Shown: piece after piece, positions 1-5,198 of the stretch | Position numbering within the stretch: position 1 is the first letter of the stretch | Layout: each line of letters starts with the position of its first letter | From: Bacteroidia bacterium | GTDB lineage: Bacteria; Bacteroidota; Bacteroidia; Bacteroidales; GCA-2748055 | Assembly (NCBI GenBank): GCA_004525825.1 | Contig: SPBY01000001.1 | Span: 1 to 24,936, forward strand | Reading direction: 5' to 3' | Length of the DNA: 24,936 nt | Notes under the pieces: model-generated | What the model was told of the DNA's origin: nothing | What the model saw: the letters and a program-made list of their open reading frames with translations, nothing else | Databases searched by the model: none | Made by a program: the position numbers and the translations under genes

Positions 1-88
1 TACTGCTTCTCTGGACACCGATTATATCGGCAAATTTTGAAGGACTTATCTGTTCCAGGTCCAGCAGCTGAAGAAGACGTTCTTTCAT
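1..88 (-). CDS. XRE-family helix-turn-helix transcriptional regulator (5' part only; runs off the window)
   Basis: Manual translation from ATG at 88: MKERLLQLLDLEQISPSKFADIIGVQRSS. The FAxxIGVQRSS helix pattern is typical of a conserved Bacteroidota XRE/Cro-C1 HTH protein. Not in the supplied ORF track because it is truncated. Confidence 0.85.
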   Translation of the reverse strand, partial: MKERLLQLLDLEQISPSKFADIIGVQRSS

Positions 89-102
89 AGCGTTAGCGTT
101 GA

Positions 103-114
103 TTACAAATGTAA
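103..114. promoter_or_regulatory. Near-palindromic box 1, TTACAAATGTAA; on the minus strand it contains TACATTTG (113->106), a Bacteroidota -7 element for the HTH gene
   Basis: Exact TAnnTTTG match 17 nt upstream of the HTH ATG, embedded in a TTACA-N2-TGTAA dyad. No -33 TTTG at canonical spacing. Confidence 0.65.
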
Positions 115-149
115 CAAGAATATTGTTTCCATATGTGAATTCTAATAAT

Positions 150-161
150 TCACATTTGTAA
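150..161. promoter_or_regulatory. Near-palindromic box 2, TCACATTTGTAA (1 mismatch), overlapping a 9-bp inverted repeat ATGTGAATT/AATTCACAT (133-155)
   Basis: Read directly from the sequence. Confidence 0.5.
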
Positions 162-198
162 CATAGATAAAATTATAGCTAAAAGCACTTATATCTTA

Positions 199-385
199 TG
201 GAACAGTCCTGGTTCCAGCTTAGTTGCTGATCTGCGTATTTTTGCAGTTATAATAAATTTTGCTTATAAATGAAGCCCAGCGTGGAACCCCTGATAACAG
301 GGCGCTAATAGCCAGCTCAGTAAGCCATATAGCCCTTGAAGCGCGTATAAAGGCGTTAATTTGCCGTGAAAACGGCTTAACCAAA
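199..385 (+). ncRNA. Candidate structured RNA or cis-element (unclassified)
   Basis: GC-richer island in AT-rich DNA with hairpins TGGAAC/GTTCCA (199-217), AGCG..CCCTG-ATAA-CAGGG-CGCT (279-306) and GTTAA..GCCGT-GAAA-ACGGC-TTAAC (355-381, GNRA loop on + strand). No family recognised. Confidence 0.25.
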
Positions 386-420
386 CATATACTTGAGATA
401 AATGCTATATAACACTGGTA

Positions 421-545
421 ATAAGATTAATAATATGAATATCTTTCAGTCTGAAAGCTTCTTTTTCGCTCATTTCAAGAAATATTTATATTATTTAGTG
501 CAAATAAATACTATATAAGTCTGATTATTAAGTGATTATTATTGT
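421..545. other. Very AT-rich tract (481-540: 9 G/C in 60 nt), with palindrome CTTTCAG-T-CTGAAAG (443-457) and direct repeat TGATTATTA at 522 and 533
   Basis: Base counting by eye; surrounding coding DNA is roughly 50% GC. Confidence 0.8.
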
Positions 546-555
546 TTCCTTACAA

Positions 556-587
556 TTTGAAAGTGGGTATGTATTTGTTTACATTTG
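556..587 (+). promoter_or_regulatory. Consensus Bacteroidota housekeeping-sigma promoter TTTG-N20-TACATTTG, overlapping box 3 (TTACATTTGTAA, 579-590)
   Basis: TTTG 556-559, 20-nt spacer, TACATTTG 580-587; fits TTTG-N19-21-TAnnTTTG. Confidence 0.65.
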
Positions 588-649
588 TAACGAGTAAGAA
601 AGTGTACTTCTGTTGTCTTATGTCAATTATTCCTTACTTTTTGTCTTGA

Positions 650-688
650 TTACATTTGTAACAGGTCTGATTTGAGTTACATATGTCA
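650..688. promoter_or_regulatory. Boxes 4 and 5: TTACATTTGTAA (650-661) and TTACATATGTCA (677-688)
   Basis: Read directly; box 4 is identical to box 3. TATGTCAATT direct repeat at 619 and 682. Confidence 0.55.
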
Positions 689-1033
689 ATTTTGTAAACT
701 GTATACTTAGGTGCTTTCTAAACTCATTTTTTCCAATTGTTGTTACAAAGAAGAAAGCACAGGATCCTTCTCAGCTTGAAAGATCCTGCTTGCATCCTCA
801 TCCCTCCTCCCCTTTGGCTTTTCCACCTTTGCATATGCGTCTGGGATTCCAATAAGTATTTTAAGCGCTCTCACTGGAAAATTCCCTGGCAGAGTACCAG
901 AGCAGGACCAAATATGGGCTTCTGAAGAAGTTAAAATGAAAGGATTACTGGATATGTATTCTGAAAAACAGACATTTAGATACAAGAAGTGTTGGAATCC
1001 CTGGATATCAAACCAGGAAAAATCAGGTCTATT

Positions 1034-2311
1034 TTATGGATTTTGCTCCAATTCTCCTTCCGAACGGGCCACAATTGAGGCCACTGTGGAGTCACCGGTG
1101 ATATTCACAACCGTTCTAAGCATATCCAGGGGTCTGTCCACACCTAGAATGAGTGCCAGTCCCTCTACGGGTAGTCCCACCGAATTGAGCACGATGATCA
1201 GCATAACAATGCTTCCACTGGGAATCCCAGGACTGCCTATGGAAGCCAGGGTCGCAGTCAATACTATTGTCAGCTGCTGGATCAGGGTCAGATCAATGCC
1301 AAATACTTGTGCTATAAAGACCGCCGCAATGGCCTGGTAACAACTGGTTCCATCCATGTTGATGGTCACCCCCACTGGCAGTACAAAGTTGGCAATGGGT
1401 TTGGACACCCCCAGTTCATGGGTCACCTGTTTCATGGTTACGGGCAGGGTTGCAGCACTGGAGCTGGTGGTAAAGGCCACCAGTTGTGCAGGGAGAATCC
1501 CCTTCATGAAACCAAGAATCTTCATGCCTGTAAATATCCGTATCAGCAAAGGATAGAATCCAAGGATCAGAAGAAACAGTGCCACAACTACGGTCAGCAT
1601 ATACATGCCCAGGGCGGTAAATATATCGGCATCGCCGGAAAAATCCACCACCAGGGCTGCCATCAGGGCAAAAACGCCGATGGGTGCAAAGCGCATGACC
1701 ATATCCACTATCTTAAGAATCACGTCGTTGAGTCCGTCGAAGAAATCCTTGACCACCTGGGTTTTCTCTCCGGGTATCAGAACCAGGGCAATGCTGAACA
1801 GGATGGCAAAGAAAATAATCTGCAGCATCTTGGAGTTGTCACCCGCTGCCAGGAAGAAGTTCTCCGGGATCATTTCCTCGAAGAAGTGAAGAGGACTCTG
1901 CTTCTCATACTCCTGGGCCGACTCCTGCCGGGTCTCCACCTGGCTACCGAACTTCTCCCGGTACTGCTCCTGCCTGTCATCGGGGAAAACATCTCCCGGT
2001 TTGAAAATATTCACCAAGGCCAGTCCCACGGTAGTCGCGAATACAGTGGTTATTATATATATCACGATGGTTTTGTAACCTATCCTGGACAGCTTGGTAA
2101 TATCGGTCAGGCTGGAAATGCCCTTCACCAGGGAGACGAAAATCAGGGGTACTGCAATCAGTTTAAGCAATTTCAAAAAGATGTTTCCCCAGGGTTTTAC
2201 CCAGTTGGTGGTAAATTCTTCCCACCCGGTCCAAACCGAGACCAGTCCCCAGAGGATTCCAAGTCCCATTCCAATAAAAATCTTTGCCCAGAGTGGTAGT
2301 TTCTTCAACAT
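1034..2311 (-). CDS. Dicarboxylate/amino acid:cation symporter (DAACS/SDF family, GltP-like)
   Basis: 425 aa, multiple TM helices; family motifs FTTSSSAATLP, GVTINMDGT, ASIGSPGIP, DRPLDMLRTVVNITGD. Confidence 0.93.
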   Translation of the reverse strand: MLKKLPLWAKIFIGMGLGILWGLVSVWTGWEEFTTNWVKPWGNIFLKLLKLIAVPLIFVSLVKGISSLTDITKLSRIGYKTIVIYIITTVFATTVGLALVNIFKPGDVFPDDRQEQYREKFGSQVETRQESAQEYEKQSPLHFFEEMIPENFFLAAGDNSKMLQIIFFAILFSIALVLIPGEKTQVVKDFFDGLNDVILKIVDMVMRFAPIGVFALMAALVVDFSGDADIFTALGMYMLTVVVALFLLILGFYPLLIRIFTGMKILGFMKGILPAQLVAFTTSSSAATLPVTMKQVTHELGVSKPIANFVLPVGVTINMDGTSCYQAIAAVFIAQVFGIDLTLIQQLTIVLTATLASIGSPGIPSGSIVMLIIVLNSVGLPVEGLALILGVDRPLDMLRTVVNITGDSTVASIVARSEGELEQNP

Positions 2312-2333: not shown

Positions 2334-5198
2334 CTATACCAGTGCTCTATATAGTATTTCTGCCGGGTGGAAGGCCTGTCTTCCCGTACCATCAAGGATT
2401 TGGTGCCTGCAAGAGGTACCCGGGGCTGCCACCAGTGTTCCTTCCCCTGCTTTTCTTACTGCAGGAAACAAAACCAGTTCCCCCACCTTCATGGAGAGTT
2501 CGTAATGTTCCTTCTCATAACCGAACGAACCAGCCATTCCACAACACCCCGAAGGAATCTCCTCCACCCTGTAGTTCTCTGGTATGGAGAGAATCCGCCG
2601 GGTCGGATCGGTGCTGGCAATGGATTTCTGCTGACAGTGTCCATGAAATTTCAGCTCTGTTGCTTCTTTAGTGAACAGGGATTTGTCAAACAATCCTTTT
2701 TCAAAGGCCCGCTCGAGGTACTCTTCCATGGTATAACAATGATCCGCCAATGTCAGGGCGCGCTCTTTATACTCTTTCCCCACCAGTTCAGGAAACTCAT
2801 CCCGGAAGCCAAGAATGGCTGAGGGTTCAATCCCCACTAGCGGTCTCTCTTCAGATACTTTGGGGAACAAAAGCACTACACTTTTCCTGGCTATCTTCCT
2901 GGCTTTTTTAAGCAGGCCCTTGGAAATATAGGTGCGGGCACTGACAGGGTGATCCACAATGTGCACCCTGATTCCCAGCCTATTAAGAAGTCTGATGCAT
3001 ACTATTCCCAGCGAAGTGTCATTGTAATTTGTAAACTCATCCACATAGAGAACCACCTCCGGGGCATCCTCCACAAGGGCTTCATTCAAACTGCGGAGGT
3101 GCTTGCGCGCCCAGCTTCGCAGGGATCTCTTCCCGAGAGTGGGAATGCTTCTGTCCCTTGCAAATCCAAGCACACTCTTCAACAGTGGAGCCGTGATCCT
3201 GCCCGTGGCCACCCGGTTGAAAATCCACGGAAACAGCATGCCCAGCCGGTTCACCACGGAAATATTGGCAATGAGCCAGGTACGCATGGGGACCGGATGA
3301 TGACTGTACCAGTGCTGCATAAACTCGGCCTTGAGCTTAGCCATGTCCACGCTGGAAGGACATTCCGATTTGCATGCCTTGCAAGAGAGACAGAGGTCAA
3401 GAATCTCGTAAATTTCGGGCTGATCAAATGGCTTTTTCAGTCCTTTTACCGAGAGCAACTCACGCAGAACATTGGCCCTGGCACGGGTGGTTGCCGACTC
3501 ATCCCGGGTGGCCATGTAGCTGGGACACATGGTGCCTCCTGTCACTTCAGTTTTTCTACAATCGCCTGATCCATTGCACTTTTCAATAAGATTCATGAAT
3601 CCACCCTCTTTCGAGAAATCGAACCAGGTAGAGAATTCCGGAGATCGGTGACCGGGTTGGAAACGCAGATGTGTATTCATGGAAGGGGTGTCGATGACCT
3701 TTCCTTCATTGAATATGCCTTCCGGATCGAACAGCTGTTTGATTTTCCGGAACAATTGAAAATTGTGTTCCCCCACCATCAAAGGAATAAACTCACCCCG
3801 GAGCCTTCCGTCGCCATGTTCCCCGCTGAGCGAACCCCGGTATTTTTTCACCAGTAAGGCGGTCTCCAGTGCGATGTCGTGATACAGCTGTACATCGCCC
3901 GGATCTTTCAGGTTCAAAATAGGCCTCAGGTGCAGTTCCCCTACGGAAATATGGGCATGGTAAACACATGCAAGTCCGTGTTTATCAAGGAGTTGATTGA
4001 ATTCGCCTATGTAATCCTCCAGTACCTCCACATTTACGCTGGTATCCTCGATCACAGTGACCGGACGCCCCTCTCCCGGGATGTTGGAAAGGACCCCCAG
4101 GCCCGCTTTTCTCAGGGCCCAAACCTTGGAGATTTCTTTTCCACTAAGCACAGGAAAATGATAGCCCAGACCGGCCTTCCTCATCTCATTTTCCATGGCC
4201 ATGATCCGCTTCTTCAACACAGATTCATCTTCATCCACCATCTCAACCATCAGAACCGCTCCGGGATCGCCCTCCAGGAAGAAGCGGTTCTTCTTCTGGC
4301 TCAGGTTCTCTTTGGTACAGTCAAGGATGGTCTTATCCATCAGTTCCACGGCTGTTGGAAAGTGTTTCAGAGCAGCCAGGTTTCCCCTGATGGCTTCCAT
4401 AACTGAATGAAAATGAATGGGAACCAGTGCTTTGTGGGGAGGAGGTAATGGGACCAGATTGAGTTTTGCCTCGGTCATAAACAGCAGGGTTCCCTCCGAT
4501 CCTGAAAGCAGGCGGCACAGGTTAAAATCCTTGTGTCTAGAGCCATCAGCCAAAAACTGGGGAGAGTTCAGCAATTCATCCAGGGCATAGCCGGTGTTCC
4601 TCCTGACCACCCCCGGGTCGGGAAATTCATTTATGATCTCAGACTGGTTCTTCTTATCACTGAGAATCGCGTTGATATCCCGGTAGATACCCCCTTCAAG
4701 ACCCTCTATTTCAAGTTTTTCCGAATATGCTTCCTGGTTCAGAGGTGCAAACTCACACACAGAAGCATCACTCAGTACTGCCCTGACCGAAAGGGTATGG
4801 TCCCGGGTGGCTCCGTACACAAGAGAATGTAAGCCGCAGCTATTGTTGCCTATCATCCCTCCGATCATGCTTCGGTTGGAGGTGGAGGTCTCGGGACTAA
4901 AAAATAGACCCGTGGATTTCAGGGCAATGTTTAATTCATCCAGCACCACTCCGGGTTCTACCCGCACCCATCGTTCCTGTTCATTGATCTGCAGGATCCT
5001 GGTCATGTGCCTCGAAACGTCCACTACCACTCCCTTACCAACCACCTGGCCTGCCAGCGAGGTCCCTGCAGTTCTGGGAATCAGGGACACATGGTTCTCA
5101 CGGGCAAAGCGCACCAGCTCACGGATGTCATTTTCATGGGAAGGATAGACCACCGCCTGCGGATACTCCTTATAATCGGAGGCATCGGTGGAGTACAT
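2334..5198 (-). CDS. FAD-binding / Fe-S / CCG-domain oxidoreductase (YdiJ / Dld-II-like D-2-hydroxyacid dehydrogenase); true start probably upstream of 5198
   Basis: PRTAGTSLAGQ and PETSTSNRSMIGGMIGNNSCG (FAD-binding domain), SGEHGDG (FAD-oxidase C-terminal), CNGSGDC and CLSCKACKSEC (4Fe-4S), HGHC...CCGMAG (CCG domain). The frame stays open upstream with family-like sequence. Confidence 0.9.
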   Translation of the reverse strand: MYSTDASDYKEYPQAVVYPSHENDIRELVRFARENHVSLIPRTAGTSLAGQVVGKGVVVDVSRHMTRILQINEQERWVRVEPGVVLDELNIALKSTGLFFSPETSTSNRSMIGGMIGNNSCGLHSLVYGATRDHTLSVRAVLSDASVCEFAPLNQEAYSEKLEIEGLEGGIYRDINAILSDKKNQSEIINEFPDPGVVRRNTGYALDELLNSPQFLADGSRHKDFNLCRLLSGSEGTLLFMTEAKLNLVPLPPPHKALVPIHFHSVMEAIRGNLAALKHFPTAVELMDKTILDCTKENLSQKKNRFFLEGDPGAVLMVEMVDEDESVLKKRIMAMENEMRKAGLGYHFPVLSGKEISKVWALRKAGLGVLSNIPGEGRPVTVIEDTSVNVEVLEDYIGEFNQLLDKHGLACVYHAHISVGELHLRPILNLKDPGDVQLYHDIALETALLVKKYRGSLSGEHGDGRLRGEFIPLMVGEHNFQLFRKIKQLFDPEGIFNEGKVIDTPSMNTHLRFQPGHRSPEFSTWFDFSKEGGFMNLIEKCNGSGDCRKTEVTGGTMCPSYMATRDESATTRARANVLRELLSVKGLKKPFDQPEIYEILDLCLSCKACKSECPSSVDMAKLKAEFMQHWYSHHPVPMRTWLIANISVVNRLGMLFPWIFNRVATGRITAPLLKSVLGFARDRSIPTLGKRSLRSWARKHLRSLNEALVEDAPEVVLYVDEFTNYNDTSLGIVCIRLLNRLGIRVHIVDHPVSARTYISKGLLKKARKIARKSVVLLFPKVSEERPLVGIEPSAILGFRDEFPELVGKEYKERALTLADHCYTMEEYLERAFEKGLFDKSLFTKEATELKFHGHCQQKSIASTDPTRRILSIPENYRVEEIPSGCCGMAGSFGYEKEHYELSMKVGELVLFPAVRKAGEGTLVAAPGTSCRHQILDGTGRQAFHPAEILYRALV

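Follow-up and report, generated by a model that had tools for sequence, protein, structure and literature searches.

Palindromic dyads upstream of an XRE-family regulator gene in Bacteroidia: a conserved array of probable autoregulatory operators

Regulators that act through clustered operators, several of them on their own promoter, provide the closest comparison for the locus described here. The switches of lambda CI and 434 are built on a five-helix, XRE-type helix-turn-helix (HTH) domain, and at lambda OR the regulator's own promoter is overlapped by three palindromic operators in a row, with 24 and 23 bp from one centre to the next, while a second operator cluster, OL, at a distance of 2.4 kb suggests looping. 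Cooperation between operators over tens to hundreds of bp, with repression that is sensitive to helical phase, is found in autonomous chromosomal regulators such as GalR (OE/OI), DeoR (O1/O2/O3) and LacI (O1/O2/O3), which belong to the LacI/GalR and DeoR families and have known ligands and large effector domains. A further set, including B. subtilis SinR, Deinococcus DdrO and the restriction-modification controller (C) proteins C.AhdI and C.Csp231I, bind as dimers to inverted repeats, with paired operators of the OL/OR type over their own promoter and feedback control. Replication origins (oriC) offer a further comparison, in that repeated protein boxes and an AT-rich tract lie side by side in an extended stretch of non-coding DNA.

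The locus reported here combines traits of these systems. Six to seven sites related to the 12-bp dyad TTACA-WW-TGTAA are spread over about 590 bp upstream of a gene for an XRE/HTH_3 regulator, in a proximal triplet with the same operator spacing as lambda OR and a second cluster further out. Unlike the phage switches, the regulator gene is chromosomal, conserved across orders of the Bacteroidia and not part of a prophage; the clusters lie about 430 bp apart as against the 2.4 kb of lambda, there is no divergent cro-like gene, and the half-site centres of the 12-bp operator are closer together than those of the 434 and lambda operators. The array is also much larger than those of SinR, DdrO and the C proteins, and its operator is conserved class-wide. 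On the comparative evidence set out below, we consider it likely that the adjacent XRE/HTH_3 protein uses the dyads as its operators, in negative autoregulation with probable looping between the clusters, so that in its mode of action the array would be a Cro/CI-like autoregulatory operator array.

The dyad array in the window

The window, by which we mean the whole stretch of DNA analysed, comprises the first 24,936 bases of one contig from an assembly of 723 contigs (3.88 Mb, 86% complete). The regulator gene starts at position 88 on the minus strand, and the contig end cuts its open reading frame (ORF) after 29 codons (positions 2 to 88, translated as MKERLLQLLDLEQISPSKFADIIGVQRSS); the rest of the gene, together with pyrD, lies beyond the contig end and is unassembled. 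The rightward neighbour of the array is a gene for an SDF (GltP-like) symporter (1034-2311, minus strand), and from the start of the HTH gene at 88 and the position of the symporter gene it follows that 89-1033, upstream of the HTH gene, is a 945-bp ORF-free region.

A scan for TTACAWWTGTAA at up to one mismatch returned five sites in the 24.9-kb window, starting at 103, 150, 579, 650 and 677, against 0.19 expected; none of 100 shuffled versions of the window reached five, and no further site was found elsewhere in the window at this threshold. The 3.88-Mb assembly holds six exact dyads, three of them at the array, with two of the remaining three within coding sequence and one in an intergenic, promoter-like position. 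When one mismatch is allowed, the assembly-wide count is at background (33 against 35 for a reversed-pattern control), and clusters of dyads occur at the array locus only. No wider dyad regulon was found in the source genome by this assembly-wide count, lone sites being at background frequency.

Three predicted operators make up the proximal cluster. O1 (TTACAAATGTAA, 103-114), located by the dyad scan and a scan for -7 boxes, includes, at 113-106 on the minus strand and 15 bp before the ATG, the -7 box TACATTTG of the promoter from which the regulator gene would be transcribed. O2 (127-138, TTCCATATGTGA) is degenerate, with two mismatches, and aligns with a conserved site at -50 in relatives; it lies 24 bp from O1. 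O3 (TCACATTTGTAA, 150-161, one mismatch) matches the -74 site of relatives and lies 23 bp from O2. In the distal cluster, O4 (579-590) and O5 (650-661), both reading TTACATTTGTAA, and O6 (677-688, TTACATATGTCA, one mismatch, 27 bp from O5) were predicted by the dyad scan, O4 being conserved in the genus and O5 and O6 being placed by genus alignment as well. A degenerate distal site at 550-561 (TTACAATTTGAA), recognised by alignment with better-conserved sites in relatives, lies within the conserved block CTTACAATYTGAAAG and includes a -33-like TTTG at 556-559. Because the degenerate sites at 127 and 550 align with sites in relatives, the layout is one of three proximal and three to four distal sites.

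Two of the distal sites also hold promoter elements. O4 contains an outward-facing -7 box TACATTTG at 580-587 on the plus strand, 20 bp downstream of the TTTG at 556-559, and TTTG-N20-TACATTTG at 556-587 is a candidate for a good divergent promoter facing outward. O5 carries TACATTTG at 651-658 on the plus strand in the window; its equivalent in most relatives reads TTACAATTGTAA, so that it is the palindrome of O5, rather than its -7 box, that is conserved. The original prediction, made from the window alone, had described the five near-palindromes, with no exact copy noticed elsewhere in the window and a -7 element inside those at 103, 579 and 650, on either side of an AT-rich tract with an 11-bp-spaced repeat, and the scans recovered each of these features.

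Conservation of the layout and co-occurrence with the regulator

Conservation of the motif upstream of orthologous regulator genes extends from the genus through the order to other orders of the class. When 41 relatives were searched at the DNA level, the locus was detected in 20 of 24 same-genus genomes, with matches covering positions 1-200, about 500-690 and the end of the symporter gene. In all 11 genus loci that were fetched, the proximal sites lie at -26, -50 and -74 from the ATG (spacing 24 and 23 bp); beyond them, at a distance of about 430 bp, come three distal sites with spacings of 70 and 27 bp. A back-translated search using one genome per species yielded at least 589 loci encoding relatives of the regulator, among them those of the cultured relatives Marinifilum and Alkaliflexus; in the best 80 loci, the proximal triplet is nearly universal and the distal cluster is present in most. 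The 69 order-level loci with enough flanking sequence carry on average 2.04 proximal and 2.12 distal sites, where shuffled and coding DNA give 0.27 and 0.12, respectively. The gap between the clusters ranges from 55 to 592 bp across families, and any loop geometry would therefore be lineage-specific.

Within a 400-genome sample of the phylum, no sampled family of the window's order lacked the regulator. It was also present in several families belonging to other orders of the class (e.g., 27 of 28 genomes in one of them), and absent from most other families. In most of the 16 loci fetched from other orders the dyad recurs at -40 to -60; a pair spaced by 24 bp at -260 to -315 is found in many. 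The distribution of exact dyads follows that of the regulator: in five regulator-encoding genomes the sole exact-dyad cluster is found at the regulator gene (in one genome of 4.9 Mb, all three exact dyads fall within 2.3 kb of it), and in five complete genomes without a homologue (E ≤1e-10) exact dyads match the control in frequency, and no two of them lie within 1 kb.

At the ATG-proximal site (about -26) the centre of the palindrome is TT, so that the site reads TACATTTG toward the gene, in 67 of 72 loci; other sites have AA, AT or TA centres, do not hold a -7 box, and are therefore kept as palindromes and not as promoters. This bears on the proposal that the dyads are bound by some other protein, or are merely palindromic contexts of -7 elements: TACATTTG does fit what we take to be the Bacteroidota -7 consensus, TAnnTTTG, and isolated exact copies occur at promoter-like positions (e.g., C493:6050), but palindromes centred on AT, TA or AA are equally conserved, clusters are found only beside the regulator gene and only in genomes that encode it, and outside the locus the motif is at background frequency. 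We regard this explanation as very unlikely.

The sites are also phased. Distances between neighbouring sites peak at 12, 23/24, 34, 47, 58 and 70 bp, with a best period of 11.7 bp (Rayleigh R = 0.53; null maximum 0.195), which indicates that the predicted operators would be bound in register along the helix. For phasing over the longer range between the clusters, R is 0.155 where the null 95th percentile is 0.132, a marginal signal that, given that the relatives are not mutually independent, should be interpreted with caution. Taken together, the dyads are real, rare, conserved, phased and co-occurring with the regulator, and O1 overlaps a promoter element.

The spacer between the operator clusters (162-549), delimited by genus alignment and a list of gaps, holds short conserved blocks, the tract of 85% A+T at 481-540 and a pair of TGATTATTA copies at 522 and 533, 11 bp apart. 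Within the genus, most loci place O4 429-434 bp from O3, a few deviating to 421-424, 445 or 458 bp, and the spacer sequence has diverged by roughly 50%, as estimated from the alignment. That its length has been kept despite this divergence fits a geometric constraint. Two features stand outside the operator model, namely the conserved blocks of the spacer and an AACCAGT motif with strand asymmetry (29 against 6). An invertible promoter was considered and rejected, there being no recombinase gene nearby and the spacer orientation being identical in all aligned relatives.

Gene neighbourhood and replication features

Downstream of the regulator gene, the association with pyrimidine biosynthesis is pronounced within the order. 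Among the best 80 of the at least 589 loci, 68 order-level loci have the regulator followed by a dihydroorotate dehydrogenase gene, which is a class 2 pyrD in some (31 bp from the regulator gene in the same genus) and a class 1B pyrK-pyrD in others. That the association survives this swap of enzyme class hints at co-regulation. In the 16 loci fetched from other orders the association with pyrD is absent.

Upstream, the neighbours differ between lineages and include an SDF symporter, QueA and an M14 peptidase, and a conserved upstream partner gene was rejected on the grounds of this variation. The long non-coding region is kept whichever neighbour is present. In some families of the window's order the gene upstream is a divergent SDF transporter gene, and in other orders the distal pair adjoins the start of a divergent M14 peptidase gene.

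This setting raises a different explanation for the distal cluster, in which it serves mainly as the control region of a separate divergent non-coding or antisense RNA that starts at about 595, under the same repressor and with no loop; such a transcript would run toward the 3' end of the symporter gene. The outward promoter at 556-587 is a good one for the Bacteroidota, and together with the divergent genes beside the cluster in other lineages it makes the divergent transcript a live alternative, compatible with the operator reading. Outward-facing -7 boxes moreover outnumber inward-facing ones among distal sites (55 to 23), and blocks conserved within the genus lie past the cluster, such as CCCTCCTCCCC at 805-818, between the distal cluster and the next gene. 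Against it stand the many distal sites with AT or TA centres, and hence no -7 box, the wealth of indels in region 700-1030 of the genus alignment, and the results of searches for a product. Rfam 15 gave no relevant match at E ≤1 for positions 1-1200 of the window and no match at gathering score for 10 related loci, and no conserved small ORF was found in the spacer. RNAalifold on the genus alignment, which is poor in the spacer, returned a consensus energy of 0 for every window between 138 and 476, with slightly negative energies only where windows overlap dyads; single-sequence folding energies had mean z-scores of -1.0 (plus strand) and -1.3 (minus strand). A structured RNA in the spacer or in 700-1030 was accordingly rejected for want of an Rfam match or a consensus fold, as a weak negative. 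We would rate the loop-free divergent transcript as possible, though somewhat unlikely.

The original prediction had also entertained a replication origin or chromosome-organising site. Under such a reading, initiator or organiser proteins would bind the dyads, and 481-540 would act as the unwinding element. An ORF-free region of about 950 bp with a tract of 85% A+T, multiple phased protein boxes, the retention of the non-coding region beside changing neighbours and the confinement of the motif to a single cluster per genome are all in keeping with such a site. In contrast to oriC, however, positions 1-1100 hold no DnaA box at up to one mismatch, which bears out the earlier remark that no perfect box is present, and the 17 orthologous 1-kb regions hold three, as compared to an estimated 3.6 or so expected. 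In three genomes, the distance between dnaA and the locus is 115, 294 and 341 kb. As the window's assembly consists of 723 contigs, the GC-skew inflection was assessed in relatives. One of these, G018, is a near-complete genome of the same genus; its locus is at 1.292 Mb, and over at least 100 kb to either side neither GC skew nor gene orientation changes. In the 400 kb centred on that point, the stretch of negative GC skew and of bias toward minus-strand genes spans 1.17 to 1.39 Mb. G042, a complete genome, has a single clear inflection in 400 kb, at about 1.49 Mb, close to dnaA and some 145 kb away from the array; a coarse survey of 20 samples in G041 was too noisy to use. The right flank in the window itself has mostly negative GC skew, and O1 keeps a constant distance to the ATG, as befits part of a promoter.

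In these relatives the locus thus lies far from the skew inflection, an outcome that speaks against an origin on the original prediction's own terms. Given the lack of DnaA boxes, the absence of a skew inflection at the locus in two relatives and the 115-340 kb that separate it from dnaA, we consider an origin or organising site extremely improbable. The size of the array, about 600 bp, had been taken as a hint of an origin, and is explained by the conserved design of proximal plus distal operators. Of the earlier interpretation, autoregulation by the HTH protein is supported, on comparative evidence, and the origin or chromosome-organising site is not.

The regulator protein and a possible mechanism

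Since the window holds 29 codons of the regulator gene only, the properties of the protein were taken from orthologues. The 29 residues encoded there share 93-97% identity with the N-terminal ends of orthologues whose full length is 151-171 aa, and orthologues as a whole range from 116 to 200 aa. Residues 9-53 of the G018 orthologue match HTH_3 (Pfam PF01381) at 26.7 bits, against a cut-off of 23, and an AF2 model of residues 1-65 of an orthologue shows a five-helix domain (pLDDT 88-93). Foldseek placed 434 Cro, 434 repressor, DdrO and SinR at the top of its matches to this N-terminal domain (rmsd 1.4-2.4 A), at a probability of 1.00 yet with weak E-values of 0.01-0.1; 434 Cro and 434 repressor, the top structural matches, reach a TM by target of 0.76-0.83, and restriction-modification controller proteins and P2 C are further close solved folds. 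The HTH fold is thus shared with SinR, DdrO and the C proteins, although no sequence match to solved chains was found at E ≤0.01. Prediction of a homodimer gave a score of 0.10 (mark 0.42), a value that weighs neither for nor against a dimer.

The HTH domain is followed by a disordered, acidic linker of variable length and by a C-terminal motif of roughly 20 residues, I-x-x-I-V-I-F-Y-x-D-x-T-F-x-x-Y-x-P, predicted to form a beta hairpin and conserved in an alignment of 49 sequences, in which only the Phe and Tyr positions are (nearly) invariant. Pfam and NCBIfam return HTH families only for the orthologue, with no S24 peptidase or other effector domain. In this the protein differs both from lambda CI, in which a globular C-terminal domain occupies the place of linker and hairpin, and from GalR, DeoR and LacI, which are not of the XRE family and in which an effector domain is visible. 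A cleavable repressor of the CI/LexA type, including the non-canonical LexA of Bacteroidetes, was rejected on the lack of a C-terminal S24 domain, and an antitoxin of the HigA/MqsA type was rejected as well, the neighbours being pyrD or pyrK-pyrD and the non-coding region, with no adjacent toxin gene. Likewise, there is no restriction-modification, toxin or protease partner gene nearby of the kind that accompanies C proteins and their like. Lacking the domains or partner genes that define these groups, the regulator belongs neither with repressors of the CI/LexA type nor with antitoxins or controller proteins. Databases name it an XRE-family regulator only, a literature search on the motif and on a Bacteroides pyrD HTH repressor found nothing relevant, and the family appears to be uncharacterised.

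The original prediction held that the HTH protein binds the boxes and regulates its own gene, possibly by looping, and the conserved layout, the co-occurrence of motif and regulator and the overlap with a -7 box in 67 of 72 loci lend comparative support to this. From these patterns we infer that the adjacent protein is the binder, that it represses and that it forms a loop. Dimers of the regulator would bind the 12-bp palindrome TTACAWWTGTAA, and those on O1 to O3 would cover and shut off the gene's own promoter: as O1 contains the -7 box, its occupancy would block RNA polymerase and result in negative autoregulation. In the window's order, control may extend to the co-directional pyrD just downstream. 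The distal cluster (O4 to O6 and the weak site at 550), some 430 bp upstream, could cooperate through a DNA loop, raising the local concentration of the regulator and stabilising the complex as in OL-OR or the gal and deo systems, and may in addition gate the outward-facing promoter at 580-587. The looped arrangement would resemble that of GalR, DeoR and LacI; taken by itself, looping between the clusters is in our estimation an evenly balanced matter. A more far-reaching scenario, which we think unlikely, is that the six to seven phased sites and the regulator assemble, with a site period of 11.7 bp and a spacer of conserved length, into a wrapped or looped nucleoprotein complex with this locus as its sole genomic target, a class-wide conserved bistable or homeostatic device that perhaps gates a divergent non-coding transcript or is coupled to pyrimidine or aspartate metabolism through the C-terminal hairpin.

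The regulator family extends over several orders of the Bacteroidia with its operator sequence unchanged, and has an unusual build of HTH domain, acidic linker and 20-residue hairpin. In each genome examined, the only clear target is the regulator's own long upstream region. A defined 12-bp operator with a predicted overlap of operator and promoter would offer a ready repressible-promoter part for Bacteroidota genetics. Identifying the signal to which the regulator responds, and whether it controls pyrD or a divergent transcript, would fill a gap in our understanding of regulation in the Bacteroidia.

Pyrimidine genes beside the regulator

A dihydroorotate dehydrogenase is encoded after the regulator gene in 68 of the 80 order-level loci, these being the best 80 of at least 589 loci that encode relatives of the regulator. 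The class of the enzyme varies by lineage, some carrying a class 2 pyrD and others the class 1B pair pyrK-pyrD. Representative regions lie at 16-1068 on the minus strand of one relative's locus (L006) and at 3000-4672 on the plus strand of the Marinifilum locus (L032); in the window, the corresponding position falls to the left of base 1, beyond the assembled contig. Since the link between the genes has outlived the exchange of enzyme class, the arrangement suggests that pyrimidine synthesis is co-regulated. The link is absent from the loci of other orders.

Phasing of neighbouring operators and motifs in the spacer

Across all operator arrays (L013-L092), neighbouring operators are spaced at a period of 11.7 bp, not 10.5 bp, and the bound DNA may be under-twisted or wrapped. 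The spacer separating the two operator clusters carries a further motif, AACCAGT(AT), read on the sense strand of the regulator, at 411-425 and 519-529 in the window and in the spacers of loci L014-L092. Within the 800-bp upstream regions of those order-level loci with enough flank, 29 copies were counted in this orientation versus 6 of the reverse complement. In the genus alignment the motif is accompanied, at a distance of about 35 bp, by a conserved TGAAAGC block, and this pair occurs twice, about 105 bp apart. AACCAGT(AT) could be the site of a second factor or an RNA-level signal. The palindrome CCTGATAACAGG at 290-301, at whose alignment position several relatives in the genus have CCTGATATCAGG, CTGTTATCAG, CTGGTAACAG or CCTGAAATCAGG, may mark a further protein site in the spacer.

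Right flank of the array and skew in a complete relative

Between the distal operators and the 3' end of the SDF symporter gene (1034-2311, minus strand) lies a pyrimidine run, CCCTCCTCCCC (805-818), which is anti-Shine-Dalgarno-like on the plus strand and GGAGG-like on the minus strand; it is kept within the genus and is not conserved in other families. Adjoining the symporter gene is one for a 954-aa protein (2334-5198, minus strand), whose sequence suggests a putative FAD/Fe-S oxidoreductase.

In the complete genome of a relative (G042; contig C1, 1.40-1.80 Mb), cumulative GC skew peaks, passing from plus to minus, within about 30 kb of dnaA. This polarity is the reverse of that usual at an origin, and could be either a true peculiarity or the result of a record deposited in reverse orientation.

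Additional dyads around pyrK and pyrD

Some families have additional dyads in the interval that separates the regulator gene from pyrK and, as a pair at 12-13-bp spacing, immediately 3' of pyrD. Additional dyads were located in L160 (G286, contig C1, positions 182050 and 183775) and at +2210 to +2235 in L031, L032, L046 and L081. The post-pyrD pair of Marinifilum (L032) stands upstream of an ORF that, by eye, looks like a putative aminotransferase. With these extra dyads, the predicted regulon is slightly larger in the families that carry them.
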